A program made the position numbers and the translations under genes. The notes beneath the pieces were generated by a model. It was not told the DNA's origin and made no database searches. It was given only the letters and a program-made list of their open reading frames with translations. From Macrostomum lignano (lineage: Eukaryota): a DNA stretch of 64,000 nt. Of the stretch, positions 42,686-64,000 are shown piece by piece. Where the stretch lies: contig NIVC01000759.1 in assembly GCA_002269645.1 (NCBI GenBank), forward strand, positions 310,001 through 374,000, written 5' to 3'. Numbering within the stretch: position 1 is the stretch's first letter; the number at the start of each line of letters is the position of its first letter.

Positions 42686-43159
42686 TCAACGAGAACCCAA
42701 GCTGAACAGCTGCAGACTCCGTGAGCGCTTCTGAGCTTTGCTCGGATCAAAGGAGACCTGCCGAGCGAGCTGTGACACGGTCTGAGCAACGCAATAGTAC
42801 TTTATAATTTCGCCTCTCTCATTTCTGAACTCGTACGGCTTCTCCGCCATGTGCCGCCTCACGAGAATCATGATGTCCTCCAGGTGCTTCTCCGTGTAAA
42901 ATTGCTCGATGTAGTCGCACAGGGTCTGCACGAAGACGCTGCCAGTCTGAGGGTCGCGGTAGGACACCTGACCCTCTGTGGTAGGGAAGCAGAACAGGAA
43001 GTCACTCTCTGGCGGGTACAGGGCCGGGTTCTGCGCGAACTCTGGGGGCAGCTGGTCTGATAGCGGCCCCCTGTGCGTCACTTCGCCTTTGCCTGTGCCG
43101 CGGCAGGCCTGGACAAAGAAGAGCTTCGGCTTGCCCGCCAGGTCGGGGCAGACGGAGGC
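42686..43159 (-). CDS. Caspase last exon (catalytic Cys and p10)
   Basis: GKPKLFFVQACRG, DFLFCFPTTEGQVSYRDPQTGSVFVQTLC; acceptor ctccag at 43161-43160, phase 0. Confidence 0.93.
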   Translation of the reverse strand, partial: ASVCPDLAGKPKLFFVQACRGTGKGEVTHRGPLSDQLPPEFAQNPALYPPESDFLFCFPTTEGQVSYRDPQTGSVFVQTLCDYIEQFYTEKHLEDIMILVRRHMAEKPYEFRNERGEIIKYYCVAQTVSQLARQVSFDPSKAQKRSRSLQLFSLGSR

Positions 43160-43245
43160 CTGGAGGAGGGTTGGGAAATGTGTAGAAATTTGTAGAGCTG
43201 CAATGCTTTGTATCATATGCACAGATGAGCCAGACCCAGACCCAC

Positions 43246-43603
43246 CTTGAACTTGGCTGCGAGCTCCAGAACCGGACTCTGCACTCCATGGCCATCGATA
43301 ATGCAGTCCCTTCCCTGTGCGTCCTTGCGGCCGTGGGCCATCAGGAAGCAGACAAAACTGCCGTGCTTGGCGAGCTCCTTGGACTTCTTTGTCTCATTGA
43401 GGAAGTCATCGATCTCTGCAGTTGTGGGATTTTGCTTCTCCATGATGGTGAAACTCAGCTTCCTGAAAAGCTTCCTCACTCGGTCCACATCCCGCTCCGA
43501 GCCTTTGCGCTCCTCTTCGCCGCTGCCAGTTGAGTACGCGTTGATGTTGATGATGAGGCAGAATCCCTGCGGGTTCGTCACCTGGTAGAAATCCTCATGG
43601 AGT
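43246..43603 (-). CDS. Caspase p20 exon (catalytic His)
   Basis: PQGFCLIINI...RKGSERDVDRVRKLFRKLSF...FVCFLMAHG; acceptor ttccag at 43605-43604, donor GTGGGT at 43245. Confidence 0.92.
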
Positions 43604-43998
43604 CTGGAATGCAGCAGGGTGATCGGGGTGTGAAGCAAAGAGTGCAGAACAAGAATCTCCGGAGACCTTTGCCTGATTCTGTGGGAAGTTTTGCCCGAGA
43701 ATGCTATGGGATGCCGTGGAATGCTGTGGGCACACTGTATTATATATATTCTCTTCCTTACTAAACCTAACTGATCATTGTTATATCTCTGAAGAAAATA
43801 AAAATTAAGAAAAAATCGAAGCAAATCATATTCTATGAGCGTAGCATGCAGCCCACAAAAAAGCTTTGACTTCATTTAAAAATCTTTTTTTTTCTTCAAA
43901 ATTTAATGCAATTAATTAGCTCGTAAATCCAGCATTCAATTTTTAATGTCACTGTAAGAGACGTGCCAATATATCCGCTTTTTTCATACAAAACTTAC

Positions 43999-46900
43999 GG
44001 AACTGTCGGCGTCTTCTCAGACTGGGACCTCTGCTGGTGCCGCCGCTCAGCGATCCACCGCGTCAACTGAGACCCGTGCCGAGAGTTCAGCTTTGCGTAG
44101 TCAGCAACAGACTTTCGCTTCCATGGAAGAAAGTGCGAGGCATCCCTTAGATCAAGGACAGAGACATCCAGTAAGTCAACGATGAAGCTGAGCGTTTCGA
44201 CATCTTGATATTGAGCAGCCACATGAGCCGCTGTAATCCCGTTAAAACTTCTGTTCAAAAGACATGACCGGCCGAGTTGCTGAACGAGCCACTTAAGACA
44301 GGAGTTAGTAGCTTCATTCTCAGCGGCACAGTGAATGACAGTGCGTTGTAAGTAGCCAGGCTGATGGAAGCAGTCGGATCCGAGGACTGATTTGAAGAAC
44401 TGCATGGAATCGGCGTCCTGCTTCCAAGCAGCGAGATGGACGGGAGTGTTTTCTTGTTGGTCTCGAACGGAGAGACAGTCGGTTCCGCACTCGTTCACCA
44501 GCCACTTGAGACAGGAGTTAGTAGCTTCATTCGTAGCGGCACAGTGAATGGCAGTGCGTTGTAGGTAGCCAGGCTGATGGAAGCAGTCGGATCCGAGGAC
44601 TGATTTGAAGAACTGCATGGAATCGGCGTCCTGCTTCCAAGCAGCGAGATGGACGGGAGTGTTTTCTTGTTGGTCTCGAACGGAGAGACAGTCGGTTCCG
44701 CACTCGTTCACCAGCCACTTGAGACAGGAGTTAGTAGCTTCATTTAAAGCGGCCCGGTGAATGGCAGTGCGTTGTAAGTAGCCAGGCTGATGGAAGCAGT
44801 TGGATCCGAGGACTGATTTGAAGAACTGCATGGAATCGGCGCCCTGCTTCCAAGCAGCGAGATGGACGGGGGTGTTTCCTTGTTGGTCTCGAACGGAGAG
44901 ACAGTCGGTTCCGAACTCGTTCACCAGCCACTTGAGACAGGAGTTAGTAGCTTCATTCGTAGCGGCCCAGTGAATGGCAGTGCGTTGTAAGTAGCCAGGC
45001 TGATGGAAGCAGTCGGATCCGAGGACTGATTTGAAGAACTGCATGGAATCGGCGTCCTGCTTCCAAGCAGCGAGATGGACGGGAGTGTCTCCTTGTTGGT
45101 CTCGAACGGAGAGACAGTCGGTTCCGAACTCGTTCACCAGCCACTTGAGACAGGAGTTAGTAGCTTCATTCGTAGCGGCCCAGTGAATGGCAGTGCGTTG
45201 TAAGTAGCCAGGCTGATTGAAGCAGTCGGATCCGAGGACTGATTTGAAGAACTGCATGGAATCGGCGTCCTGCTTCCAAGCAGCGAGATGGACGGGAGTG
45301 TTTTCTTGTTGGTCTCGAACGGAGAGACAGTCGGTTCCGCACTCGTTCACCAGCCACTTGAGACAGGAGTTAGTCTTCTTTCTCATAGCGGCTTGGTGAA
45401 TGGCAGTGCGTTGGCAATTGCCAGGCTGATGGAAGCAGTCGGATCCGAGGACTGATTTGAAGAACTGCATGGAATCGGCGCCCTGCTTCCAAGCAGCGAG
45501 ATGGACGGGAGTGTTTCCTTGTTGGTCTCGAACGGAGAGACAGTCGGTTCCGCACTCGTTGACCAGCCACTTGAGACAGGAGTTAGTCTTCTTATTCATA
45601 GCGGCTTGGTGAATGGCAGTGCGTTGGAGTCGGCCAGGCTGATGGAAGCAGTCGGATCCGAGGACTGATTTGAAGAACTGCATGGAATCGGCGCCCTGCT
45701 TCCAAGCAGCGAGATGGACGGGAGTGTCTCCTTGTTGGTCTCGAACGGAGAGACAGTCGGTTCCGCACTCGTTCACCAGCCACTTGAGACAGGAGTTAGT
45801 AGCTTCATTTAAAGCGGCCCGGTGAATGGCAGTGCGTTGTAAGTAGCCAGGCTGATGGAAGCAGTCGGATCCGAGGACTGATTTGAAGAACTGCATGGAA
45901 TCGGCGCCCTGCTTCCAAGCAGCGAGATGGACGGGAGTGTTTCCTTGTTGGTCTCGAACGGAGAGACAGTCGGTTCCGCACTCGTTCACCAGCCACTTGA
46001 GACAGGAGTTAGTAGCTTCATTCGTAGCGGCACAGTGAATGGCAGTGCGTTGTAGGTAGCCAGGCTGATGGAAGCAGTCGGATCCGAGGACTGATTTGAA
46101 GAACTGCATGGAATCGGCGTCCTGCTTCCAAGCAGCGAGATGGACGGGAGTGTTTTCTTGTTGGTCTCGAACGGAGAGACAGTCGGTTCCGCACTCGTTC
46201 ACCAGCCACTTGAGACAGGAGTTAGTCTTCTTATTCATAGCGGCTTGGTGAATGGCAGTGCGTTGGAGTCGGCCAGGCTGATGGAAGCAGTCGGATCCGA
46301 GGACTGATTTGAAGAACTGCATGCAATCGGCGCCCTGCTTCCAAGCAGCGAGATGGACGGGAGTGTTTCCTTGTTGGTCTCGAACGGAGAGACAGTCGGT
46401 TCCGCACTCGTTGACCAGCCACTTGAGACAGGAGTTAGTCTTCTTATTCATAGCGGCTTGGTGAATGGCAGTGCGTTGGAGTCGGCCAGGCTGATGGAAG
46501 CAGTCGGATCCGAGGACTGATTTGAAGAACTGCATGGAATCGGCGCCCTGCTTCCAAGCAGCGAGATGGACGGGAGTGTCTCCTTGTTGGTCTCGAACGG
46601 AGAGACAGTCGGTTCCGCACTCGTTCACCAGCCACTTGAGACAGGAGTTAGTAGCTTCATTTAAAGCGGCCCGGTGAATGGCAGTGCGTTGTAAGTAGCC
46701 AGGCTGATGGAAGCAGTTGGATCCGAGGACTGATTTGAAGAACTGCATGGAATCGGCGTCCTGCTTCCAAGCAGCGAGATGGACGGGAGTGTTTCCTTGT
46801 TGGTCTCGAACGGAGAGACAGTCGGTTCCGCACTCGTTCACCAGCCACTTGAGACAGGAGTTAGTAGCTTCATTTAAAGCGGCCCGGTGAATGGCAGTGC

Positions 46901-48966
46901 GTTGTAAGTAGCCAGGCTGATGGAAGCAGTTGGATCCGAGGACTGATTTGAAGAACTGCATGGAATCGGCGTCCTGCTTCCAAGCAGCGAGATGGACGGG
47001 AGTGTTTCCTTGTTGGTCTCGAACGGAGAGACAGTCGGTTCCGCACTCGTTCACCAGCCACTTGAGACAGGAGTTAGTAGCTTCATTCGTAACGGCCCAG
47101 TGAATGGCAGTGCGTTGTAAGTAGCCAGGCTGATGGAAGCAGTCGGATCCGAGGACTGATTTGAAGAACTGCATGGAATCGGCGTCCTGCTTCCAAGCAG
47201 CGAGATGGACGGGAGTGTTTTCTTGTTGGTCTCGAACGGAGAGACAGTCGGTTCCGCACTCGTTCACCAGCCACTTGAGACAGGAGTTAGTCTTCTCATT
47301 CATAGCGGCTTGGTGAATGGCAGTGCGTTGGAGTCGGCCAGGCTGATGGAAGCAGTCGGATCCGAGGACTGATTTGAAGAACTGCATGGAATCGGCGCCC
47401 TGCTTCCAAGCAGCGAGATGGACGGGAGTGTCTCCTTGTTGGTCTCGAACGGAGAGACAGTCGGTTCCGCACTCGTTCACCAGCCACTTGAGACAGGAGT
47501 TAGTAGCTTCATTTAAAGCGGCCCGGTGAATGGCAGTGCGTTGTAAGTAGCCAGGCTGATGGAAGCAGTTGGATCCGAGGACTGATTTGAAGAACTGCAT
47601 GGAATCGGCGTCCTGCTTCCAAGCAGCGAGATGGACGGGAGTGTTTCCTTGTTGGTCTCGAACGGAGAGACAGTCGGTTCCGAACTCGTTCACCAGCCAC
47701 TTGAGACAGGAGTTAGTAGCTTCATTCGTAGCGGCCCAGTGAATGGCAGTGCGTTGTAAGTAGCCAGGCTGATGGAAGCAGTCGGATCCGAGGACTGATT
47801 TGAAGAACTGCATGGAATCGGCGTCCTGCTTCCAAGCAGCGAGATGGACGGGAGTGTTTTCTTGTTGGTCTCGAACGGAGAGACAGTCGGTTCCGAACTC
47901 GTTCACCAGCCACTTGAGACAGGAGTTAGTAGCTTCATTCGTAGCGGCCCAGTGAATGGCAGTGCGTTGTAAGTAGCCAGGCTGATGGAAGCAGTCGGAT
48001 CCGAGGACTGATTTGAAGAACTGCATGGAATCGGCGTCCTGCTTCCAAGCAGCGAGATGGACGGGAGTGTTTTCTTGTTGGTCTCGAACGGAGAGACAGT
48101 CGGTTCCGCACTCGTTGACCAGCCACTTGAGACAGGAGTTAGTCTTCTTATTCATAGCGGCTTGGTGAATGGCAGTGCGTTGGCAATTGCCAGGCTGATG
48201 GAAGCAGTCGGATCCGAGGACTGATTTGAAGAACTGCATGGAATCGGCGCCCTGCTTCCAAGCAGCGAGATGGACGGGAGTGTTTCCTTGTTGGTCTCGA
48301 ACGGAGAGACAGTCGGTTCCGCACTCGTTGACCAGCCACTTGAGACAGGAGTTAGTCTTCTTATTCATAGCGGCTTGGTGAATGGCAGTGCGTTGGAGTC
48401 GGCCAGGCTGATGGAAGCAGTCGGATCCGAGGACTGATTTGAAGAACTGCATGGAATCGGCGCCCTGCTTCCAAGCAGCGAGATGGACGGGAGTGTCTCC
48501 TTGTTGGTCTCGAACGGAGAGACAGTCGGTTCCGCACTCGTTCACCAGCCACTTGAGACAGGAGTTAGTAGCTTCATTTAAAGCGGCCCGGTGAATGGCA
48601 GTGCGTTGTAAGTAGCCAGGCTGATGGAAGCAGTCGGATCCGAGGACTGATTTGAAGAACTGCATGGAATCGGCGCCCTGCTTCCAAGCAGCGAGATGGA
48701 CGGGAGTGTTTCCTTGTTGGTCTCGAACGGAGAGACAGTCGGTTCCGCACTCGTTCACCAGCCACTTGAGACAGGAGTTAGTCACCTTATTCATAGCGGC
48801 TTGGTGAATGGCAGTGCGTTGGAGTCGGCCAGGCTGATGGAAGCAGTCGGATCCGAGGACTGATTTGAAGAACTGCATGGAATCGGCTCGATCTGCTCGC
48901 ACTGCGAAAGCAATGCTCCTGTAAGATGTCTGATGGCATGTGCGCAAGTGTATGTACATTTGCTCG
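43999..48966 (-). CDS. Ankyrin-repeat exon (22 x 71-aa double-ankyrin units plus cap) of an ankyrin-caspase
   Basis: 213-bp tandem units encoding QRTAIHxAAxN and xxTPVHLAAWKQ; open for about 5 kb; donor GTAAGT at 43998 (phase 2) splices in frame to the caspase exon (CC|A). Confidence 0.88.
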
Positions 48967-49926: not shown

Positions 49927-50329
49927 GCTCATGTGATGGAAAATTATAAAATAGTTAATAACCTGACTGGTGTGATGACCAATCAATTGTGAAGCGACAG
50001 TCAGACTAGACGGAGAGTTGTTGAAATAGAGTGGCTTGAGTTGAGTTTTGTGTGTTGCGCAACTTGGGGTGCTGTGTAAGAGGCAAGCGACCAATGTACA
50101 GCGTTTTAGTTGATCAACTGGCACTCGCTTTATTAACATTTGTCGCTGAATTTGAAAATTTTCGAAGTTAGCTGAGATTTCAAGTGATCACAGAAAAATT
50201 AAGAAATGCTGTGTAGTCGAACGAGTCGTGCGACTTGGTCTTTCACTTGATTGCAGTGTGAATGAGCCTTAATGAAAATGAAGGCAGCTCAAGTGCAGAG
50301 AGCTGCAGTAGCAGTAGCCCAGCCCCAAG

Positions 50330-51370
50330 CTAGTCTTGTCAACATGTTTTAGCGGCCGCCTCAATACCAGCTGGACAGGACTTTGGGCGTTGGCTGGCCA
50401 GATTCAACAATTTCGCATCTTCCAGTGGATCAGCGCAAGAATGTGCTGCTATCATTCCTCGACGATAAATCATATCAAGCGGCCAGCAATTTGGATGCTG
50501 CCCTGTCCCAGAACGGCTTTGAGAAGGCTCTGAAAAATCGATTTCGGCCATCGACATCATCTGCTGAGCTGCAGGCGCAGTTCTTCAATCTGACTCAAAA
50601 GGACGGTCAGTCGGTTGCAGACTATTCCGATGCTCTGATTGTTGCGGCAAAGCGCGCTTTCCCGAGTTGATGGAGACGAAAGCAGGAGACGTCAGTGACA
50701 GCGAAGGACGAGCTGCTCTAAGGTCGGTTTCTATCCGGATTGAGGGACCCAGTTGTGCAAATGCAGATGCAGATGCAGATGCAGCCAAAGGCGAAATTCG
50801 CTGATGCGGTGGAAACAGCGCGATTCGTGGAATCTATTCAGTCGCAAGGAGCCGCCGCTACGGATCTAGCTGCTGAGGTTCCCGAAGCCTTTGCATTCGA
50901 AATTCAACGGTCTCTGCAGGAGCTGTCCAACAAGCTCAATCGCTGGGAGACAAAGGACCAGGATCATTGTGAGAGTGGCGACAGACGCAGAGTTGTGACA
51001 TGCTGGAAGTGCGGTAGGCCGGGCCATGTTCAAAGATTTTGCACTCAGAAATCAGGAAACTTCGGTGGAGCGGCGACCGCCGGGGTGCCGTTCCGCAAGT
51101 GAAAATCTCAGTGCACCCAGTGGTGGAGGTGTCCTGCTCAGCCACTGGTGCTAACGTGCTGGTGAACTGTAGCATCCTGCCAATGTGTTTCCCTTCGGAG
51201 TCCCGCAGTCGGTGCACACCGACCAGGCTCGGAACTGGGAGTCGCAGCTGTTTCAAGAGACGATGCGGCTGCTGAAAATCGACAAGACTCGGACGACAGG
51301 CTACCACCCTGAAGGAGACGGCGGTTGCGAATGGATGAACCGGACGCTGGTGCAACTGTTGCGAGCATGA
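50330..51370 (+). pseudogene. Ty3/Gypsy remnant: gag with zinc knuckle fused to an integrase-core fragment
   Basis: FFNLTQKDGQSVADYSDAL, CWKCGRPGHVQRFC (CX2CX4HX4C), then GVPQSVHTDQ...TTGYHPEGDG.CE.MNRTL; RT/RNase H missing. Confidence 0.8.
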
Positions 51371-51734
51371 GTAAACGAGAATCAGCGAGACTCGGATCTT
51401 TATGTGCAGATTGCACTGATGGGCCACCGCACTTCAGTCCACAAGTCTATTGGTCAGACACCTTCGGGGATGCATTTCGGCCGAAAACTGCGCGGCGCGC
51501 ATGCAACACAGCCAGTCCAGCTGCAGCACCTCAATTGCAACCAGCGGCGCAACTGCACAATACTGACGAGGACAGCCTGAGCTTTGACGGCGCCCCAGTC
51601 GGCGCCCCAGTCGGCGCCCCAGTCTTTTTGGTGAAGCGTATACTAATTAAATCCAGTTTTTGTTATTTCTTTTTTGAAACAGTCAAGTGTCGGTCTACGC
51701 CTTAAGCCACTTTCTCGTCTCGGCTTATTCTTAC

Positions 51735-51778: not shown

Positions 51779-52522
51779 CAGAAAGCTCGCCACAGAGCAC
51801 GAATTGGCCGGCAACAATGTCCATGCAAGTAGTAGGAGTTAGCAGAACACGGCCGCAGGAAATTCCGTGGAAATTCCGTCACTGGTTTATGTACTGGAGA
51901 GATGGCTCCTAGAGCCCTGATCGCCTAAAACTTACAAGCCTTCGCTGAGTAGCAGGTATGGGGGAAGGATGAGCATTGCAACTACATGTATAGGATTTCA
52001 TGTAAGCATAAAGCAGCGGTAGGAGCAGAAAACGAGAAGCGCGTATGAATAAAATAAATAGTGGGTGCTGTGCGTATACTGTGCATGTATATGGCTGTGT
52101 CTGACTTTTGAGATGGTATAGAAATGCAACTGTTTTTTAATCATTTATGCATAGTAGAAGATACTGAAATTATAATAGGCTCGTATGCTTTTAAAAATTT
52201 GCCAATTCGCAGGCTTTGTTTGCTTACTCTTTCGGCCTGGAGCTTCTTTTTGTAAAAAATGCGAACTATCGCTGTGTAGTGTGTGAACACAGCGCCTATG
52301 TAAATGCGTTGGTGCACTCTGTCGCAGTGAAAGCCACTGAAATTGGGTGGAGCCGCTGCTGTTTTATGTTTGTAATATGCATGCTTGAATTGAAATCAGC
52401 CCAGAACTGTGCCTGCAGTGTGAAGTGCTGTGCATCTGGAGTGGGGGAGGCTAATGTATACTGGCCAACCCTTTCCTAGCATTCACCCACCCTCCGGCAC
52501 CCACCCCACTCCGCCATGAGGA

Positions 52523-52530
52523 TATAAAAG
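52523..52530 (+). promoter_or_regulatory. Canonical TATA box upstream of the PC4-like gene
   Basis: TATAAAAG about 70 nt before ATG 52599, preceded by C-rich boxes. Confidence 0.55.
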
Positions 52531-52598: not shown

Positions 52599-53337
52599 AT
52601 GGACAGCGGCGAAGGCTACAAGGTACAGGTGCAGGAATTTGAAGGGCAAAAATTCATCGCCATTAGGAAGCACCAGCGCCAGCCTCAAGCCTGGAGTTCC
52701 CGGCTTCAATCTGAATACGCATCAGTGGGCGAAACTGAAGGAGGTAAAACGCTCGCTCGTGAAGGCCGCTCTAAGCGGTGAAACCAAGGTTGTGAAATTG
52801 GGCTTTGACAAGTTTATTGAGGTCAAACAAGGAACAATTTGGTTGAAGCGACTGCCCGAGGACTGTTGCGAGGAGTTTCTGAGACGCAACACAGTGCCTC
52901 TGTCTCCGCTCTTGTGGCAAAAACTGTGGCACGCTTCCGGTTGATTTGACAAGCAGCTGGCAGAGCTCTCTCAAAGCATGCGAATGAACTATGAGCTGAG
53001 CTCATCTGACGACGATGAAGAGGTCACCGTGAAGCTTCCCATCAAGACTGAACCGAATGAGGGTGAAGAAGAGGCCCGCTCACCAACAGAGCTGACGATC
53101 GCTACTGAGCCGGTGACTTCAACGCCTCTGCCCCGAGCTGGCGCTGGGAACATCCCGTCAGAGGACACAAACTTGCAAGAAGATCCAGTATGGTATCAAT
53201 TCCGGGCTCATGCGGCTGCGGTGAACAACAGCAGAAAGCGCAAGCAACCGTGGGCTCTGCGCAGGCAGAATGCGGTCAAGAGGCCGAGGTGGATACCCCG
53301 TGACGAGCTGCCGAACTCGGACGAAGATGATGAGTGA
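52599..53337 (+). pseudogene. PC4/Sub1-like ssDNA-binding protein (possibly two PC4 domains) with acidic tail
   Basis: YKVQVQEFEGQKFIAIRKH + LKPGVPGFNLNTHQWAKLKE matches PC4 VSVRDFKGKVLIDIREY...[20 protein letters not shown]; one frameshift near 52675 and an in-frame TGA at 52942. Confidence 0.75.
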
Positions 53338-53716
53338 ACTTGTTTTTAAATGACAGCGATAGTTCGCATTTTGTATTTCTTTGATTACCATGCGCATATA
53401 AAAATTATAATAATCGAGAAAAAATTGTGGTAAAAAATCAAAATTTATTCAGCAGTTCGCGTGACTTCATTTTCAACAATTTGACTAACAACTTGATTTC
53501 ATTTAAACTTTACTCAGTTTCCTTTTGTTTTGTCTGTAACTGTTCTGAATCGAATCACTGAAGTAAATGTTCACTGTGTTGTGCTCCGCTGAATGCTTGC
53601 TTTAGCGTATAATATGTTACTGCATGTAAAATACACTGTTGTTCTATCAAACTTTATTCGTCGCAGGCCCTTAAGCATTTAAGAAAGAAAGCTGTCTCAG
53701 TTGATTTTTTTAGCAA

Positions 53717-54440
53717 ATGGAAAAGATATTCTTTAATCCCGAGCAGCCTGCCAGTTTTTCTGGTTGCAACAAACTTCTGAATGAGGCTCGAAAACAAGGT
53801 ATCAAAGTGGGAGAAAAATCTGTTAAGAATTGGCTTAACGAACAGGCAGTTTACACTTTACATAAGCCATAAATCCATAAGATGGAACCAAACTTTGAAG
53901 AATAAAATGTGGCGATACTTCACTCACAACAGCACTCTGCACTGGGTAGATGTGCTGCCAAAGTTAGTGAAGTCGTACAATGCTACTTTTCACAGAAGCA
54001 TCAGAATGGCACCAAGAAATGTTTGCAAGCAAAATGAGTCGGAAGTGTGGATGAACCTGTATGATGGCAAGGCAATAGAAACTTTGGATAAAGTCAGGAA
54101 ACCAAAGTTCAGTGAAAATCAAACTGTAAGAATTTCCAACCCACCCCGGCTATTCAAAAAAGGGTACAAAGCAAACTGGAGTGAGGAAGTGTACACTGTA
54201 GTTGCAAAAGCTCCGAAACATAATCCTTACATGTACAAGATCCGAGACATGAAGGGAGAAGAGATTCAAGGCCTCTTTCACGAGCACGAGCTGCAGGCGG
54301 TGCCGGACTCACAGCGACTATACGTGATTGAGAAAGTGTTGAAGACACAAAAGCAAAGAGGGAAAATTCGCTATCTTGTCAAGTGGGCCGGCTACGATTC
54401 GACAGGCTGGGTGGATGAAAAAGACTTAAGAAAGGTTTAG
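53717..54440 (+). pseudogene. Retroviral-type Polinton integrase with C-terminal chromodomain, catalytic core deleted
   Basis: MEKIFFNPEQPASFSG...WLNEQAVYTLHKP joins directly to WNQTLKNKMWRYFT...YN.TFHRSI; chromodomain YVIEKVL...YLVKWAGY. Confidence 0.88.
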
Positions 54441-54468: not shown

Positions 54469-55287
54469 ATGATTATAATGCGAACTATTTTGATTAACAG
54501 TGAGCATGCTGAAGGTACTCCTAGTGACTTTAATTTTTACCTGTCTTCACCTATTCACTTGGATCGAAATGTGGACCATGAGGCAGGTCTGGCTGAAATC
54601 CATCTGCCTGCTGCATGGTTCATTGTTGACGAGCCTTACTGCTTCACTGTCTCAGATGGAAGAGAGCATGAGGCCCTGGTTCTTCAACCCGGACGATTTG
54701 CTAGAGTGGAGGAGCTGGTAGAGCGCCTGAATGAGCTGCTGGCCAACTCTGATTCGCTGTTCTTTGATGCAATGAGTGACAGGGAGTCTGAGATGGAGGC
54801 CGATGAGTCCGGCCTGATGGGGCGTAGTGGCAACAGGGAATTCGGTATGAAGTTCGAAATCCGCAACTCACGAACTGTGGTGCACAACAACACTACGAGA
54901 GCAGAGCTGTTTCTCCCATCCAGCAAAATTCTGCATTGGCTGGGATTCGGAAACCAGGCTGTGAAAATCCAGCCAGGAAGCCGCGTGTCCGAGCATTGCA
55001 TTGGCTGCCCGCGCACCAGCTTAATCAATGTGCACTGCAGTATCGTTGAGTCAACTAATTGCAACTGGGGCTCCCTGTTGAGAACAGTCGGAGTGAACGG
55101 CAACATTCAATGTGGCAACTACCTGTCAAAAATATTTAAGAAAACAATATTCTTCCCGATTCAACGAATCAGTCTTCTTCACAGCATTCGAGTTCAGCTG
55201 AGGGACATCTATGGTTGCCTACTGATTGCACAGACTCACAGCCCTGTTCTGCTCACAGTTCAGATTCGAGAGAAACGCATTCAATGA
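54469..55287 (+). CDS. Minor capsid (penton) protein
   Basis: INS...PSDFNFYLSSPIHL...GLAEIHLP...INVHCSIVE...LLRTV...FFPI...SIRVQLRD; position between integrase and MCP. Confidence 0.75.
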   Translation: MIIMRTILINSEHAEGTPSDFNFYLSSPIHLDRNVDHEAGLAEIHLPAAWFIVDEPYCFTVSDGREHEALVLQPGRFARVEELVERLNELLANSDSLFFDAMSDRESEMEADESGLMGRSGNREFGMKFEIRNSRTVVHNNTTRAELFLPSSKILHWLGFGNQAVKIQPGSRVSEHCIGCPRTSLINVHCSIVESTNCNWGSLLRTVGVNGNIQCGNYLSKIFKKTIFFPIQRISLLHSIRVQLRDIYGCLLIAQTHSPVLLTVQIREKRIQ

Positions 55288-55659
55288 ACTACCAGCAGCT
55301 GATCCATCAATATTCGGGGGTGAGGACAGCACACGAAAAGCCTGCACTCTATGGCTGTGGGAGCTTCTCAGGGATCATGACATACCAGCCTCCGCCAGCG
55401 GCTACATCATCATCTTCAACGCTTAGCAACGTCAGGCGCAAAAGAAATACTGTAGCAAGTCCGAAACGATTGAAGAAGAAGAAGGGCACCCACCCGAAAG
55501 GCAACTGGTGGAAATCGCAATAAGAGGTCAAGCAAGGCTAGTGGGAAAAAGCTTAAGAATAGGAAGACGAAAGCAAAGAAGAATAGAGCAGGCGGAGGAA
55601 AGCGAAAGCGAAAAGTCAGCAAGAAAACTGTGAAACGCGTGCTCGACTCTCTGTCATAG
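55284..55659 (+). pseudogene. Lys/Arg-rich core-like (DNA-condensing) protein, frameshifted
   Basis: GCGSFSG followed by highly basic RRKR...KKKK and, in another frame, KKLKNRKTKAKKNRAGGGKRKRKVSKK to TAG 55659; immediately before the MCP. Confidence 0.55.
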
Positions 55660-55661
55660 AC

Positions 55662-56945
55662 ATGGCTTACGGATTCAATCCCAGACTTGATTTATTTAAG
55701 ACGCCCATTCTACAAACCTGCATTGAAAAAGCTACTTATGTTGATATTCACCCAGTAAATTCCATTACTGCAAACTCCCCCATTGAATTTGATTGCCACC
55801 AATCTGCCGATGAATACACAGATCTGCCTAATTCTTTTCTTTATATTCGCTGCCGCCTTGTGAGACTGGATGGGGGTTTGCTGAGGGAGGATGTTCGAGA
55901 CGGGGATGGCATCATCACCGAGCGCAGAGACAGTGATGTGCACCCATAAAATTTTGTTTTGTCTACAGCCTTCTCAGATGTAATTGTAAGCATTAACCAG
56001 CGAGTGGTGTCTGGTGGAGACCAGCTCTATCCCTACCATGCGTACTTCAAAGCACTAATGAGCTCATCCGATGGCCAGCAACTAAAACTTTACCCTGCTG
56101 GCTTCCTGGAGCCGAACTCGGCAGCTGAAGAGCACACGGAGAGCCACAGGGAATCCCGATGGATGGAGTATGCGGGGCCGCTCTTCAGCGATGTTTTCCA
56201 GTGCCCAGTGTTTCTGCTAAGCAATCTGCACTTGCACATCAAACTGGTGCCCAGCGATGGGGCCTTTGCCATCAGAAGCCCGAATGCAAACAACGCGGCA
56301 TACCGAATGGAAATCTCTCACAGCATTCTGCATCTTCGCCGAGTCAAAGTGGTGCCCCACATCAGTCTGGCTCACGAGCAGGGGCTGACAAACCAAAATG
56401 CACTGTATCCCATCGAGCGAACTGAAATGCAGAACTTCATCCTACCCCAGGGCATCCAATCTAAAAACATTGAAGGATTCACTCATGGAAAATTGCCGAA
56501 GTTCATCATGCTGGCCTTCGTGAGCCACCGTGCATTCAATGGTCATCATCACGCGAGCCCATTCCAGTTCCAGAGCTTCAACCTCAGCCGGTTGGCTCTA
56601 AAGAAAGGTGGGGAAACCGTGTGCCACGGCGCCTTTACACCTGAAAACAATTCCTTCGTAAGAGAATACTTGCACTACCTGAAAAGCTGTCAATCTGCAA
56701 GCCCCACAAATTCGGTCCCGTGGATCCCCTACCAGCTCTTCTCCAACAACACCACGGTGTTTGCATTCGATCTCACACCCGAGGGAGCGGCTCTGTGGTA
56801 CGGACAGAAGGAGGGCAACCTGCGGCTGGAGATTCGCTTCCAACAGGCACTGAATGAAGCGGTGTCCTTGATTGCTATGTGCCTGTATGACTCGCTGATT
56901 GAGGTCACCAAGCACCGGGAGCTTTTGCTGGACTATTCCTCTTAA
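55662..56945 (+). pseudogene. Double-jelly-roll major capsid protein with one in-frame stop
   Basis: LDLFKTP.LQTCIE...PIEF...YTDLPNSFLY, YPYHAY, LPKFIMLAFV...FNG...PFQFQSFNL, FAFDLTP, GNLRLEIRF; TAA at 55947-55949 in frame with both halves. Confidence 0.9.
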
Positions 56946-56950
56946 CTGGC

Positions 56951-57481
56951 ATGGACGCAATTAAACTATTCAATCTCGCCAAAAAAATTTTGCCTTGCCA
57001 AAAATTTTCTATAATTACTTTACATTTGCGCTATAAAAATTCTCTGCCCTTGAATGTAAAAAGAAAATTTCGATCATCAATTTCCCTTGAAAACAAGTTT
57101 GTTTTTGCTCTACTTCAGCTCAATGGCTCATTTGGTCACTGGGCGGTGTGCTATGTTGGGCAAGGAAATTGCATTGAGTTGTTCAACTCCCTCGGCTGGG
57201 AACCTGAAATTTTATCTGTGGTTTATAATTTGTTTCGAGAGATTAAAACAACTGGCTTTTGGCTCCGAAGCAATCTAAACAGATTTCAATGTGCTAACTC
57301 TAATAAATGCGGAATGTTTTGCATCTATTTTGCTTATCAAAAGTTTCTGTTCAATCGGTCATTTGAGGGGATTCTGAAGCATTTGCATGCTAATGAAAAA
57401 AATCATTTGAATGATAGAATCTTACAGAGGTTTGAAGCCAACTTAAGAAAAAGATGTTCTAGAACTATATTTATGCATTAG
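56951..57481 (+). CDS. Adenain-like cysteine maturation protease
   Basis: GHWAVCYV...ELFNSLG...FQCANSNKCGMFCIYF; His, Gln and Cys present, usual acidic triad residue reads Asn. Confidence 0.85.
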   Translation: MDAIKLFNLAKKILPCQKFSIITLHLRYKNSLPLNVKRKFRSSISLENKFVFALLQLNGSFGHWAVCYVGQGNCIELFNSLGWEPEILSVVYNLFREIKTTGFWLRSNLNRFQCANSNKCGMFCIYFAYQKFLFNRSFEGILKHLHANEKNHLNDRILQRFEANLRKRCSRTIFMH

Positions 57482-57483
57482 AC

Positions 57484-58130
57484 ATGGAAGAAAAGCGAGT
57501 TTGCTACGATATCCGCCTCAGGCAGGGAAGCTGCATGATTGTCTGCGGGCCCACCAATGCAGGAAAAACAACCTTTGTCAAACACCTGATCCAGTACAGA
57601 GACGTCATGTTTGATGTGAAGCCTGGCAGAGTTCTGTGGTACTATGGGATCTCACAGGCAGGCCATGCAGAACTGAGCAGCCTAGGTGTGCAGCTGCGCC
57701 AGGGATTTCCCACCAACATCGAGGCAGCACTTAGGCCCAATGACTGGTTGTTTTCGATGACTTAATAGAGGAAACTTCAAATTCTGCTTCAATGCGAAAT
57801 TTTTTCACAGGAATCGCACATCACTTGCCGTGCTTTTTGGTGATGCTGACTCAGAATATATTTTTCAAGGGAAAAGAGTCGCGAACAATGAGCTTGAATG
57901 TAATGTATTTAGCTATCTTGAAAAACCCCAGAGACCAGCTGCAGATTGCAGCACTGGGCAGGCAGTGCTTTACAGAGAAGCCCGGCTTTCTGCTGTCAGT
58001 GTTCAAGCACGTGACCGCGCAGAACAGGGGAGCCTACCTGTTCCTAGACTTTCACCCATCAACTCCCGATGAGCTGCGAGTGCGGGCCAGAATTCTGCCC
58101 AACCAGCGACCCCATCTTGTATTTGCTTAA
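57484..58130 (+). pseudogene. FtsK/HerA-type (A32-like) packaging ATPase, frameshifted
   Basis: Walker A GPTNAGKT; 1-nt loss in Walker B (L)VVFDDL near 57747; HH...LTQNIF...RT.SLN..Y...KNPRD. Confidence 0.9.
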
Positions 58131-58172
58131 GAAAGTGAAGCTTGTTTTTTATCGGCTATTGTTTTCATCGCT

Positions 58173-58508: not shown

Positions 58509-59208
58509 AGCAGAGTATGAGATGTTGATTCAGAATTTGAAGCCAAATGAGACTACCACTGAAGCTGACTTGAAGCAGGCTCAGAAGAAATGCGATGACA
58601 TCTTGTATGCCGAAGATTGTCCAGAAGATGTGAAAACCACCATGTATCAAAGTGCAATGCAAAGTTTGCTGGCCAAGCGCAAGCACGCTGGAAAAGAAGG
58701 AGTACGCAATGCTGAAGCCAAGTTGATGAAAACAGAGACACCCCAGATGAACACCTGGGAAGAGAAGATCAGCAAGTCGGTGCCACAGAAATTCAAAACC
58801 AGGGCTCGCAGTCTATGGACGATCCTGTCCACCAATCCAGAGCTGATTGGAGTTTGTGAAAACGGGGAGGTGGAAATCACAGGCACTTCAATCCCTTCCT
58901 CAAACATACTGGACTTGATTCAGCACGCAGTGAGGGATTCGTCATGTGAGCGTGAACCAGTTGGGTGGAACGAGTTCATCGATTTGCTGCAGCAGAAAAA
59001 GCTTAATGTTCCGCTTTCCGCTATTGGTAAATCAGTTAAGAAGAAAATGGTAACCAGCAGAGGGAGTGAACTGGAGAAAGAACAGGCGAGTCTAGTCAAG
59101 GGGTACGGAAGCAACACAGCCTGGCTGAAACTGTCTGGCAGAAAAGTATATAAGAAGGTGGACTGTCTCCGAAATTTCTCCGGAAAGCTGCATCATGAAC
59201 TACATTGA
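58474..59208 (+). CDS. Conserved Polinton hypothetical protein
   Basis: EMVLIP... and GEVEITGTSIPSSNILDLI...PVGWNEF motifs seen in Maverick/adintovirus ORFs. Confidence 0.6.
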   Translation: MNKFSEMVLIPKAEYEMLIQNLKPNETTTEADLKQAQKKCDDILYAEDCPEDVKTTMYQSAMQSLLAKRKHAGKEGVRNAEAKLMKTETPQMNTWEEKISKSVPQKFKTRARSLWTILSTNPELIGVCENGEVEITGTSIPSSNILDLIQHAVRDSSCEREPVGWNEFIDLLQQKKLNVPLSAIGKSVKKKMVTSRGSELEKEQASLVKGYGSNTAWLKLSGRKVYKKVDCLRNFSGKLHHELH

Positions 59209-60031
59209 CTTCCAAGGATTCCCGTGCAACAGCACAAGCAAAACATTTGTTGTGAAGGAGTTGGCAGTTGTTCAAATCAGAGCGGGAAGCTACCGCATTG
59301 CTCACCATGTGTACGCACCTCCGTATCCATGGGAGAGAGTCTCACCTGACATGCGAGTTTGCTACAGACAGCTATCAAAGAGTCTGCACCAGTTTAAGTG
59401 GAGTGATGGAACCCGTCCGTACATGGAACTGGCGGAAGACATTCTGAGCATTGCCAGTGGTCCGATCTGGACAAATGGGGAAAGGAAGTCTATTTTCCTG
59501 ACTGAGCTGCTTGGTAGACAGGTTTATAACCTAGAAGATTTGGGAGCACCATCGATTGAAGATTCAGATACTGGCTGTGCAGTGAGAAATTCATTGCTGC
59601 ACTACAGTTGGCTTAAGCCAAAGTTCTGCATCAACTTAAGAAGCGAGCAGTGTCCGTGGCACACGAGCAGAAGATTTGCTGAAGAAGTCAAGGATAGAAA
59701 TGAGCCCACCAGCTGCAGCCCTAAGAGTGACCAATCTGGTTGGCGGAGTGGATCTGAGGCTGGATGGTGGCAGGGGCGCCCAGCTGCCTCTACGGGAACT
59801 GGCTCTCAGCATGGCTCATGTGATCTACCGGCCCGTCTGGCCCCGGGTGCTCATCAAGCGGATGCGGAGTCCCAGAGTGACTCTGCTACTCTACCCTACT
59901 GGGCAACTGAGCATCTGCGGTGCCAAGACCCACGCAGACGCCAAAAGGGCTGCCCGTCGCTTCGTGGCTATGCTGCATCGGAGAGTGCCGGCTCAACTGC
60001 TGCCTCATCAAACTATTTGTGTTCGAATTAA
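59195..60031 (+). CDS. DEDD/RNase H-like exonuclease-related viral protein; the 3' part overlapping the TBP gene is probably read-through
   Basis: YIDFQGF...FVVKELAV...APPYPW...WSDG..PY...NLEDLGAP motif set. Confidence 0.55.
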   Translation: MNYIDFQGFPCNSTSKTFVVKELAVVQIRAGSYRIAHHVYAPPYPWERVSPDMRVCYRQLSKSLHQFKWSDGTRPYMELAEDILSIASGPIWTNGERKSIFLTELLGRQVYNLEDLGAPSIEDSDTGCAVRNSLLHYSWLKPKFCINLRSEQCPWHTSRRFAEEVKDRNEPTSCSPKSDQSGWRSGSEAGWWQGRPAASTGTGSQHGSCDLPARLAPGAHQADAESQSDSATLPYWATEHLRCQDPRRRQKGCPSLRGYAASESAGSTAASSNYLCSN

Positions 60032-60272
60032 AACTATTACTGCTCATGGCCAACTTTCGCTCAGTTCTGCATTGTCCCTACCAAAACTGTCTATGAATTT
60101 AGCAAAAGCTGAGTATGAACCTGAATCTTTTTCTGCTTTAATTTTCAAGCTGAAGTTTTGTAAATGTCTGCTATTTCACCGCGGCTCCTTTATTCTAAGT
60201 GGTGCTCGATCTTTTTTTCAATTGCAAACAGATCTCATGCGATTAAAACGTGTAATTTGTAACTCAGCGTAA
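59700..60272 (+). CDS. TATA-box binding protein (TBP) homolog
   Basis: Two TBP half-repeats: VTNLVGGVDL...MRSPRVTLLLYPTGQLSICGAKT and AEYEPESFSALIFKL...LLFHRGSFILSGARS; AATAAA follows the stop. Confidence 0.88.
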   Translation: MSPPAAALRVTNLVGGVDLRLDGGRGAQLPLRELALSMAHVIYRPVWPRVLIKRMRSPRVTLLLYPTGQLSICGAKTHADAKRAARRFVAMLHRRVPAQLLPHQTICVRIKTITAHGQLSLSSALSLPKLSMNLAKAEYEPESFSALIFKLKFCKCLLFHRGSFILSGARSFFQLQTDLMRLKRVICNSA

Positions 60273-60377
60273 AAATAAATGATTACAGTTAGGAAAGAAG
60301 GAAGCTTATAACTAAGCTAATTTTTGCATGAATAAAGATGAATCGTTCTGACTTCTTTTCATGAGTTTATTATTTAA

Positions 60378-60410: not shown

Positions 60411-61009
60411 TCCCAATTAAAACACGCAAATGACAAACATAAAACAGCAGTGGAAACAATAAATGGATGTAATAAAAAGTGCTAAATATTGCTCAAAAGA
60501 AAGGAAAATAAAAAAGGTCCATTGCCTGACACCAATTGGAAAAATGTGCGTTAAAATAGCTATATCAGATTCAGCACAAATGTTGCCAACGAAGTGAGCG
60601 ATGATGAAATTACCGGTATGAGCAAAATGACAGGTTTGTAACGAAACACGACTAAAAAACATGAGAATGTAATTACATGGGCTATGACAACATAGCAATT
60701 ACACTTCAGCATGTTGAACGTATTACAAAAGCTATCAGATAGTTTAAAAGAGCAATAAAGCAAATAACTACGAGTACATTTTAAGTCATGCGATATTTTA
60801 AGTAAATCAAAGCCTATGCGTTAGTTTAAAATAAATTTGAATATGCTCATAAACAATAATATAAGATTGGAAAATTTCGAGAAATTTAATGTCGATAAAC
60901 GTAAGTATGAAAAAAATGAATTAGACTGGCTTGATTATGGATAGCAATAAATGATGTAATCGTCGTAAGTCGTTCAAATAAATGTTAATGATGCATCCCT
61001 CACGTTTAG

Positions 61010-64000
61010 TCACTGTTGAAGATCTGGAGGCCGCTTCCTCTTCCGGGATGGTGCATCAGATTGGCCAAGACGGAAGTGGCCGAACGGGAGGCTGTCATTT
61101 GCGCTGATCCAGGCCCGTTTGTCTTCCCAGATGGTGAGGGCTCGCTTCCTCTGTCGAACTGTGAACACTTCATGTCGATGGCTTGCAATTCGGTGTGTAA
61201 CAACATCAAGCGTCTTCAATGACTCAAATGCAGCAACATAGTCCGCATGATTAATTTGCTGCTTCAGTACGGCTCTCTGAATTCCTTTTGCGCCCTTCTT
61301 ATGAGCGGAAGCGGCGGAGCTTTGAAAACTGTACAGTTTTGGTCGGAGGAGAATCCACTCTTTGTACTCAATTCCGCAGGATTCATCCTTGACACAACCG
61401 AGTTTGGCTTTTAACTCTGTAGACTTAAGCGGGTGTCCGTCAACATAGTTTGATGTGTCAAGAATCCGCCTTTTGATTAACTCTGGCAGGAACTCTTGCA
61501 CAGGGTCAATATTCCTGATGCAAAGGAAAAAAGAATCTATGTCACCTCCACAGAGCTGTAGCCGAACTTTCTCGTCTTCAAACCACGGTTTAAGTTTGTT
61601 GTACCACAGCGAATACATAAACAACTTAGATAGATCAAGGACGCACTGACCTATGTAAATTGGTCTGTCCAGGCACACGGTTGTTTTGCTCAGCTCAAAT
61701 ATGCTCAAGTCCTGGTTGATGATAATGACTTCTTTTAAATTGGGCTTTGAAGCCAAAATCCTGGCCTTTACCTCGGAATTGCAGATTCTGATCAATCTCC
61801 GTTTACTGACGTTTTCCATCGCCTTTCCAAATACCGAATTAATCTTGAGCTTGTAGTAGAACTTCTCAAACTCTGACTTTGATGCAATCCTTCGCTCAGT
61901 ATTCTTGCGAATGTAAGGATCCAGGATAGCAGCCTGCGAGAACTGTATTGCTCGCTAAAATTTAGCGACTAGCATTCCCTGCTCAATGTAGAATTTCAGA
62001 GTTCTGCTGTGAACGACGTAGCTCTGCTTGTCAAAGCAAGTTAGCAACAGTTTTTTACAACTATTATAGTTATGGCCATCTGGATTCAAACGTTGCCATA
62101 GATCTTGCATGAACTCTGGAAAGTCTGCAAACTCCAGTTGGGATTTCTCCGGTGCCAGTGGCAAGTCACTCGTTTTGTCATGAATTTCGGGTGGGCAAAT
62201 CAGGTCAACCTCGACCAGAAATGCTGTTGGCGCATCGTCTGGGTGATTCAAAATAGTGGCATCAGTCCAAGTCATCAGTTCTTCAGGCTCAACCCACTTG
62301 AATTCTTTGTAGGGCAGCTGCATTGATAGCGCAACACCGTAAAGATTATTGACATCAAGAGGAATGAGTGATGCTGACTCATTTGCTGACTTCTCCATCG
62401 CCACCTGATGTACATTAACAAAACACATACCACCACGAATACCTTCTTCAAACATCCTATACATTGTGTTGTCAGTTAGTACCAGTAGCTCCAGCTTGAC
62501 TCCAGTACTTTTCAAAGCCGAAGAGAAGGATAATCCAGGAGTGGATATGAAGTGGACTGGATCTAATCCATCATCTAGAATACTAAGACGCCTGAACGAC
62601 TCAAAGACATCAGCAAGCTGCCTAACATCAAGCTGGAGGTAAGCAAGCATGTAGTCTTTTAAATTCGCTGCACCAAATTCATCCCATGCCCTCCTCGCTC
62701 GTTCATACTGCTCGGTGGTGCATTCACTCTTTGAGAGGGTGCTGAAAAATTCCTGACGAGGTGGTAGCTCGTTTAGCTCCAAGTCAGCTGTGCTTTGTAC
62801 AAACTCATAGGGAAAGACACCTTTGGCTTCAAGAGTGACATCAGTGAGAGTGGGATAGAACTCCTTTAGGGATTCGGTGTGGATTCGTTCATCCTTCGGT
62901 AAATCTCTAATAGGAGAGTTTAAACTGCTGCTGAGAAATTGGAAAGAGTCCAAAAATTGGATCGTGGCATAGAGTGGCACAGTTTTTCCTTGAATAACGA
63001 CTTCATTAACTTGCACTTCGGCGGTTAGAGACAGGCATTTCTCTGTCGTAATTGGTACAACACTTAGACGCCAGTGCCTCATTTTTCCCAGTGCTACAGA
63101 AAAGAGAAAATGCATGTCGTAGTTCTTTAGGTTATGGAACAGAACAGGTAAATAGCGTCGCTTTAGCTGAGCAGCAATGTTACACTTGGAGCATGCAGCA
63201 CCTCGAAATTCACCAGACAGGTGATCATGATCCCAAACCTTTAAAATGGTGTCCTCATTGAACTTCTCATGACAGTAATAGCACGTATCGGCTGCTTCAA
63301 ACAGGCTTTGAGCGTTTGGATCAATAATCTTCGGCTGATAACTGTGGCTCCTGTTCCACTCATAAATTTCGCGCGCAAGCTGTTCAAGAGAAAGAAGAAG
63401 TTGCTCAATGCAGTTCTCTGTCGAAGAGGCTGTAAAGGCTTCATACATTGATTTGGAGTCTCTGAGTGCAGGTCCTTTAACACCTGCTCTTTGGACAATC
63501 AGATACCCAGCAGCTGCTGGTGTATGATGAGAAATTTTTTGTAGCCCTGCTGGAATTTCAGTGTTCATGGGAACATTGAAGGACTCCAAATCTGCATAAA
63601 CTACAAATGGTGGAGAAACTGTTTTCTCATAGCTCGTAAAGGACATTATGCTCTTTTCTTTGGTGGGCATAATCTCTTTCACCATACAGCTGTTTGATTG
63701 GTAACAATCTTCACGATGAGCACTAAGACGCTCAGTAGATTTGAAACCTGTCAAGCATCTCTCGCACCATTTTCTCTGGTGCAGTCCATCATGACTATTG
63801 AGCAGACGGTTGAGATTTACAATCCCACACCAATGTCCTTTTTCAGAGTTGTTGGCTTTTGAAAAAAGTAGCAGTGGAACTACGATTCTTCCTTCGGCGA
63901 CTTCTACCTTTGGCTGTCTTAAAACTTCCACTGTTCCATTCTTCCACGTCAGCACAGTGAAGCACACGTTAGAATTTCTTTTCTCAACTTGTTCAAGGCT
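61010..64000 (-). pseudogene. polB: Protein-primed family B DNA polymerase (pPolB) with one in-frame stop; 5' end outside the window
   Basis: Exo VYADLES, FHNLKNYD, LDSFQF; inserted CxxC...DHDHLSG.FRG.AC.KCN domain; Pol motifs LDVNNLYG, KLKINSVFGK, GDIDSF; TAG at 61955-61957 in frame with both halves. Confidence 0.95.

Follow-up and report, generated by a model that had tools for sequence, protein, structure and literature searches.

The last plus-strand gene of a 17.5-kb Polinton in the genome of Macrostomum lignano encodes a 190-aa protein with a predicted TATA-binding protein (TBP) fold, and this gene is retained under purifying selection in Polintons. The DNA-reading saddle of the protein is altered, and we consider it rather probable that the protein serves as a late-gene specificity factor, which would read the word YWTAAGAR and recruit host TFIIB and RNA polymerase II (Pol II). 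The window, i.e., the whole stretch of DNA analysed here, covers 64,000 nucleotides of contig NIVC01000759.1 (positions 310,001 to 374,000). The element extends from position 51828 of the window to C759:379321, and its features are the following.

51828-52251, no strand: left terminal inverted repeat, ends AGTAGTAGG; partner at C759:378891-379321, beyond the window
52523-52530, plus strand: ordinary TATA box TATAAAAG of the PC4-like gene; a TATA box in 17/17 family-A and family-B elements printed
52599-53337, plus strand: PC4-like coactivator/ssDNA-binding gene, broken here (sister copy Pfam PC4, E 1e-7)
53670-53685, plus strand: words CTTAAGCA and TTTAAGAA, 47 and 39 nt before the integrase start
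53717-54440, plus strand: retroviral-type integrase with chromodomain, internal deletion here (sister copy Pfam rve, E 1e-13)
54425-54432, plus strand: word CTTAAGAA, 44 nt before the predicted penton gene
54469-55287, plus strand: predicted minor capsid protein (penton), named from gene order, without a Pfam match
55135-55142, plus strand: word TTTAAGAA, 149 nt before a small basic ORF
55552-55559, plus strand: word CTTAAGAA, 110 nt before the predicted major capsid gene; exact word in 8/12 family-A elements
55662-56945, plus strand: predicted major capsid protein, named from gene order, one internal stop here
56951-57481, plus strand: Adenain-like protease (Pfam Peptidase_C5, E 0.0035, below cut-off)
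57442-57449, plus strand: word CTTAAGAA, 42 nt before the ATPase
57484-58130, plus strand: packaging ATPase, frameshifted here, weak P-loop matches
58126-58133, plus strand: word CTTAAGAA, 47 nt before the 111-aa ORF, containing the ATPase stop codon
58173-59208, plus strand: two conserved ORFs of unknown function, 111 and 244 aa
59149-59156, plus strand: word TATAAGAA, overlapping an ordinary TATATAAG, about 46 nt before the 278-aa ORF
59195-60031, plus strand: 278-aa ORF, 332 nt of its tail shared, in another frame, with the first TBP repeat
59635-59642, plus strand: word CTTAAGAA, 65 nt before the TBP start; in 12/12 family-A elements scanned
59700-60272, plus strand: TBP-like gene, intact ORF, 190 aa, two repeats
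60040-60050, no strand: mosaic breakpoint within the TBP gene, between the two repeats, seen as shifts of identity and dS
60274-60279, plus strand: AATAAA after the TBP stop, second copy at 60331-60336
61010-64000, minus strand: protein-primed DNA polymerase B (pPolB), one internal stop (Pfam DNA_pol_B_2, E 1.8e-15), start beyond the window

The terminal inverted repeats are 96.8% identical over 432 nt, as expected of Polinton/Maverick elements (adintoviruses), and Pfam identifies both pPolB and the rve integrase, while the protease and the ATPase of the Polinton core set have weak profile matches only. The 6-bp target-site duplication is absent at this copy, present at the sister copy C114 and conserved in 5/6 positions at C1131. 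The plus-strand order is PC4-like gene, integrase, predicted penton, small basic ORF, predicted major capsid gene, protease, ATPase, two ORFs of unknown function, 278-aa ORF and TBP. The polymerase follows TBP on the minus strand, and ORF order and Pfam agree with the preliminary description, in which TBP was the last gene of the plus-strand cluster and convergent with pPolB. The penton and major capsid genes are predictions from gene order; they gave no match in Pfam, and the predicted major capsid gene none in the PDB. The 278-aa ORF, which we take to be DEDD-nuclease-like, falls in the Atlas with unnamed clusters (0.97), with Maelstrom (0.88) as a lead. The element was rightly called decayed: compared with the sister copies, which are largely intact, 6/12 genes within the window carry a stop, a frameshift or a deletion.

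A 40-nt inverted repeat (85%; 52353-52392 and 60414-60453) flanks the plus-strand block and is also found in the sisters C114 and C1196. Ahead of the PC4 TATA box lies a GC-box-like CCACCCC/CTCCGCC run (52490-52516), kept in several family-A subfamilies, which could be a host factor site. The right arm past the window (L031:918-4396, minus strand) contains an acidic repeat ORF and a 461-aa ORF that stands behind a TATA box and weakly matches the zinc-binding FAM76. Directly left of the Polinton (50300-51400) are decayed gag/integrase fragments of LTR-retroelement type, including a zinc knuckle, and a host locus on the minus strand (42686-48959) encodes a 1654-aa ORF with about 21 ankyrin-like 71-aa repeats, adjoining caspase-like ORFs (named by eye).

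The ORF at 59700-60272 matches the Pfam TBP family (PF00352) in two stretches with E 2e-23, so that the claim of an intact ORF of about 190 aa with both TBP half-repeats is borne out, and every one of its 35 PDB sequence matches is a TBP or a TBP fusion. The AlphaFold model of the protein reached a pLDDT of 95 on an alignment of 91 sequences that included cellular-type TBPs, and the model is hence not independent of them. In Foldseek the model superposes on solved TBPs with TM 0.79-0.85, and the Pfam match and the predicted fold together give the two-repeat TBP saddle. The model is closer to cellular TBPs (TM 0.84) than to viral ones, for which the best structure match had TM 0.75 and the BFVD matches had 8-20% identity. 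Aromatic residues had been proposed at all four DNA-intercalating positions; Y65 (for Phe), F144 and F159 are indeed in register, but the first Phe pairs with P48, since gap-free alignments place P48 there and leave W47 out of register. Because the set of four intercalating phenylalanines is incomplete, with only F144 and F159 retained, we class the protein as a divergent TBP homologue and not as a canonical TBP orthologue. Its nearest named relative is a Macrostomum lignano protein (87%). The AATAAA described as the gene's own does follow the TBP stop, at 60274 and again at 60331, but it probably serves the whole plus-strand block.

One Phe, one Asn and both Thr equivalents are lost from the DNA face, and the replacements at this face (N12, V14, R49, T61, L63, Y65, T112, F144, K155 and F159) are invariant in families A and B. 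The presence of P48 in place of the first intercalating Phe could weaken DNA bending. At the position of yeast P191 there is S145 (Asn in family B) and at yeast V203 the invariant K155; in the distant lineage of Polintons described below the proline is kept and the word starts with T. The covariation of residues and words was followed over three lineages, and in all three Tyr-Pro stands at the second Phe, and the positions of yeast Val122, which contacts base 6, and of Asn159 hold Ser or Thr. According to the available text of PMC1636458, the C-lobe of TBP reads the 5' half of the box, Pro191 limits base 1 to T, yeast Val203 and Leu205 set base 2, and the TBP cavities admit G at bases 3 and 6.

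The surface kept best in the TBP-like protein is the TFIIB stirrup of the C-lobe, whose acidic residues E140 and E142 are invariant in 15/15 A/B sequences. The stirrup glutamates of TBP bind TFIIB; they are missing from most viral TBPs, which rely on a viral TFIIB instead (PMC7221094, available text). No TFIIB or RNA polymerase gene was found among the element ORFs scanned with Pfam, and the TFIIB matches of the genome lie on contigs outside the TBP lists. The kept glutamates, taken together with the lack of a TFIIB gene in the ORFs scanned, make it likely that the protein recruits host TFIIB and Pol II. A stirrup preserved beside a DNA face with these losses could also belong to a decoy, which would bind host TFIIB or block host promoters and leave the word to another reader. 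This we find improbable, as the DNA-face replacements are themselves invariant, which points to a changed rather than a lost DNA site, and host shut-off would be poorly suited to an integrated element.

The TBP-like gene has at least 152 matches in the genome (150/233 candidates scored), a count that exaggerates the number of independent insertions, because host TBP and TRF2 are each found on three contigs. Polinton genes lie directly upstream of TBP in 48/48 loci checked, and the TBP ORF is intact in 53/54 extracted loci, which were drawn mostly from the best matches. Family A TBPs show 72-100% identity and family B TBPs 36-39%, with 45% for the ATPase of family B; the gene occupies the same position in both families. 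For nine family-A representatives, dN/dS of repeat 1 was at most 0.25 in 35/36 pairs, and for repeat 2 it was 0.04-0.25 in 16/16 estimable (unsaturated) family-A pairs, whereas the 21 near-identical family-B pairs gave mixed values, some near or above 1. The dN/dS comparison suggested in the preliminary description thus came out as purifying selection, with family-A pairs mostly at 0.04-0.25. The protein is 28% identical to host TBP and 24-28% identical to host TBP/TRF2. The A and B proteins form one clade with unnamed environmental relatives (SH-aLRT 96-97), and a clade with host TBP was rejected by the AU test (p 0.028, quick tree).

Neither of the two outcomes named beforehand as refuting the proposal occurred: the fold is that of TBP, and a host TBP retrocopy carried as a passenger can practically be dismissed. 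The TBP-like gene has no intron, as was noted from the start and as a retrocopy would have it, but the intronless state says nothing on retrocopying, because the core of host TBP is also one exon. The identity to host TBP of only 28%, the rejection of a clade with it, the Polinton context of 48/48 loci, the shared position of the gene across families with 45% ATPase identity and the purifying selection all count against a retrocopy; the gene is a fixed part of the sister elements, far from host TBP.

The gene was present in all seven Polinton families sampled in this genome. For the five distant families (ATPase 32-35%), the TBP profile was matched in 7/10 regions fetched, with all five families covered, and 2/4 frames scanned were above the Pfam cut-off. 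The A/B TBPs and the distant-lineage TBPs each formed a clade (97 and 100) and their union was unsupported in a quick tree with six rows omitted. The distant-family TBP frames (L108:1016-1612, L116:2732-3286, L106:2691-3317 and L098:1345-1893; C362 and C1680 regions, L100-L105) are open for about 45 codons ahead of the first ATG and, in all five families, begin directly after a pyrimidine tract and AG. Because of this they are likely to be spliced full-length proteins, which calling from ATG alone would turn into apparent 140-aa 'mini-TBPs'. The distant families also carry deoxynucleoside kinase, dUTPase and phospholipase A2-like genes (L106:3337-3957, L098:7494-8363, L112:8188-9218). Family-B elements (L047-L048, L082-L083, L037-L038) are short, about 10-12 kb; their polymerase gene is shortened or split, PC4 lies at the opposite end, and they are possibly non-autonomous. 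In the most abundant subfamily (L071-L072, L006-L030), 25 TBP coding sequences are identical and many copies have an ATPase match split at one shared place; judged from these sequences, a copy whose packaging gene was broken has expanded very recently. A scan of viral and metagenome contigs for genomic context outside this genome found nothing, and one match, L091, proved to be due to chance.

The TBP gene of this copy is a mosaic. Up to about 60040 it is 95-100% identical to four sister subfamilies, thereafter 55-84%, and across the breakpoint dS rises from <0.13 to >1. Repeat 1 tracks the capsid gene (Spearman 0.76, 36 non-independent pairs), and repeat 2 follows neither the capsid nor the polymerase clearly; the idea that it travels with the polymerase was unsupported (Spearman 0.28, 36 non-independent pairs). 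Several diverged second halves exist and all of them keep the stirrup and Phe motifs, which is strong evidence, at the level of sequence, that the whole TBP-like protein is needed. Sub-gene mosaicism has been reported for such viruses generally (10.64898/2026.10.13.758929, available text). The 278-aa ORF and TBP repeat 1 overlap in the same phase in both families, by about 332 nt (A) and 389 nt (B), with a GC3 of 0.61 inside the overlap and 0.28-0.46 beyond. Such an overlap is mildly unlikely to stay open by chance (P 0.009-0.08). Dual coding was rejected as the main cause of the conserved first repeat, since the upstream genes are equally similar.

Upstream regions of the element fall into two classes: the terminal genes have ordinary TATA boxes (PC4-like gene in 17/17 elements, right-end ORF in 7/8), and the inner genes have CTTAAG(AA). 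In family A, CTTAAG(AA) precedes the integrase, penton, ATPase and TBP genes in 12/12 elements, the 112-aa ORF in 11/12 and the major capsid gene in 8/12, and the protease and the 230-aa gene are without it. CTTAAGA occurs 5-6 times against 0.5-0.6 expected in 4/4 family-A blocks (0/200 shuffles). The exact CTTAAG is not enriched in family B (1 vs. 1.4), which fits the looser YWTAAGAR, a degenerate word set after the data were seen and counted over elements that are non-independent inside one family. Its sites are on the coding strand and mostly 35-110 nt ahead of the genes for the integrase, the predicted capsid proteins, the ATPase and TBP, with 7-8 occurrences on the coding strand and 0 on the opposite strand in 3/3 blocks (two of family A, one of family B). 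Between 30 and 115 nt before a start there are 5-7 per block against 0.08-0.14 expected, three of the start positions being approximate. The window as a whole is not enriched (19 vs. 27 expected), and 8/19 occurrences lie in this 6-kb block. An unbiased 6-mer scan returned TAAGAA as the top word by count, in 18/30 upstream windows. Words inside coding sequence use the rare TTA-AGA codons 3-4 times against 0.4-0.5 expected in four family-A blocks. In the distant lineage the word is TATAAGYA (3-6 per element vs. 0.15-0.43, 0/60 shuffles, 6/6 elements), and the same six elements show no excess of the A/B word.

When the three words are lined up with a TATA box, each has G at base 6 and is loose at bases 1-2, and the common G fits the known cavity (PMC1636458, available text). 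YWTAAGAR might be near enough to a TATA box for host TBP to read, and host TBP or TRF2 could then read the word unaided, the viral TBP being a generic booster or a spare with unchanged specificity. We think this unlikely. It is true that the words differ little from a TATA box, that TBP has been solved in complex with T(-30) and G(-26) variant boxes according to the text available, and that wild-type TBP can accommodate G at base 6, but in the available text of PMC1636458 it did not select it. Moreover, other genes of the element still have ordinary TATA boxes, the saddle changes are invariant across A and B, and the words differ between lineages within one host.

The start codons cluster about 35-65 nt past the word. 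In three cases an ATG lies <15 nt from it, and for at least two of these a later ATG matches the conserved start. Over 48 sites, the stretch 25-35 nt downstream of the word showed no conspicuous initiator signal. TAAG is also the baculovirus late initiator, and the word with its TAAG core could be a late signal belonging to a large DNA virus that acts as helper; the RNA polymerase of that virus would then transcribe the block, as happens with virophages, with TBP assisting. Virophages and helper viruses have promoter motifs in common, as stated in the available parts of the sources. This explanation appears still less probable to us than reading by a host factor, as the spacing of the start codons and the fit of the later ATGs correspond to TATA geometry, the AATAAA signals and splice acceptors indicate nuclear Pol II, and three words coexist in one host. 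Contigs from four probable-RNA runs of four studies cover 54.5-60.05 kb, and their alleles match the most abundant subfamily at 31/31 positions; they may be of DNA origin. The edges of their coverage are mapping effects, because the integrase and polymerase of that subfamily fall below the 90% threshold.

We therefore return to a viral TBP with a changed saddle as the reader of YWTAAGAR before the integrase, predicted capsid, ATPase and TBP genes. The word would act as a promoter and be read some 30 nt ahead of the start site, and the two gene classes would be early (TATA box) and late (word). Host TBP would first drive the TATA-box genes, i.e., the PC4-like gene and the right-end ORF, and TATAAAAG at 52523, offered earlier as a binding target, is probably an ordinary early-type box and not the specific target of the viral TBP. 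The family-B TBP gene lies behind an ordinary TATAAAAG and the family-A TBP gene behind the word, and the word before its own gene suggests positive feedback in family A: a small amount of viral TBP would then boost its own expression as a self-reinforcing switch. Having recruited host TFIIB and Pol II to the word, the viral TBP would act as a late-gene switch, perhaps assisted by the PC4-like protein. The suggestion that the protein may recognise its own promoters thus gains direct support from a shared, strand-specific, predicted promoter-like word. More tentatively, and at somewhat less than even chances, animal Polintons may widely run a one-protein late-transcription system, in which a retuned self-encoded TBP co-evolves with a lineage-specific TATA variant (core TAAG) as orthogonal pairs, uses host TFIIB and Pol II, and forms an autoregulatory latent-to-virion switch.

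The closest functional parallel is KSHV ORF24, a TBP mimic of beta/gamma-herpesviruses that directs host Pol II to late promoters with TATTWAA (PMC12529657, available text). Both cases combine a virus-encoded TBP fold with TATA-variant late promoters, the function being tested for ORF24 and inferred here. ORF24 is a large multidomain protein of a six-factor complex without the TFIIB-binding acids (PMC12529657, available text), whereas the Polinton protein is a bare 190-aa core that keeps these acids, in a 17.5-kb element. None of the five partner factors of the herpesvirus late complex was found among the element ORFs scanned, and the extra domains are absent from the 190-aa core. The TBPs of large dsDNA viruses share the two-lobe fold (PMC7221094, PMC11410667, available text), but most of them lack the TFIIB glutamates and work with a TFIIB of viral origin (PMC7221094, available text), whereas the glutamates are invariant in the Polinton protein and no element TFIIB was found in the ORFs scanned. 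By analogy, the Polinton TBP would work like the herpesvirus mimic and is a member of neither that system nor the NCLDV TBP-TFIIB pairs. Cellular TBP, TRF2 and the engineered TBPm3 (PMC1636458, available text) have in common with it the fold, the C-lobe YEPExF stirrup and three of the four aromatic positions; the Polinton protein differs by its 24-28% identity to the host genes and by natural substitutions at the residues setting bases 1-2.

The statement that viral TBPs are known mainly from NCLDVs holds for that group but has to be widened to the herpesvirus mimics (PMC12529657, available text) and to a label on MELD virus maps. MELD viruses are mid-size linear dsDNA elements related to adintoviruses and have a TBP-like gene (10.1101/697771, PMC8502044, available text); 'TBP' is there a figure-legend abbreviation only, and the text available mentions neither promoter word nor mechanism. 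The available part of the supplement of Starrett et al. does not mention TBP. The Polinton surveys searched by term, as far as their text was available, do not mention TBP either, and the transcription factor they report is VLTF3. An account of a Polinton TBP with a promoter word was not found in the literature searched, the scope of which ended before subscription journals, Repbase reports and bioRxiv supplements. Within the text available, the label 'TBP' in the figure legends of Starrett et al. is the only precedent found, and the promoter-like word and its placement are new.

A self-encoded TBP with a word that it would read bears on how Polintons time their capsid genes, and hence on whether and when virions form. 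If the proposed reading is true, one small protein would do what takes a six-factor complex in herpesviruses or a full viral polymerase elsewhere, and this would be, to our knowledge, the simplest viral late-promoter system. The three word-protein pairs in one genome are a natural experiment on the sequence preference of the TBP saddle and, if the reading is true, would be natural orthogonal TBP-promoter pairs.
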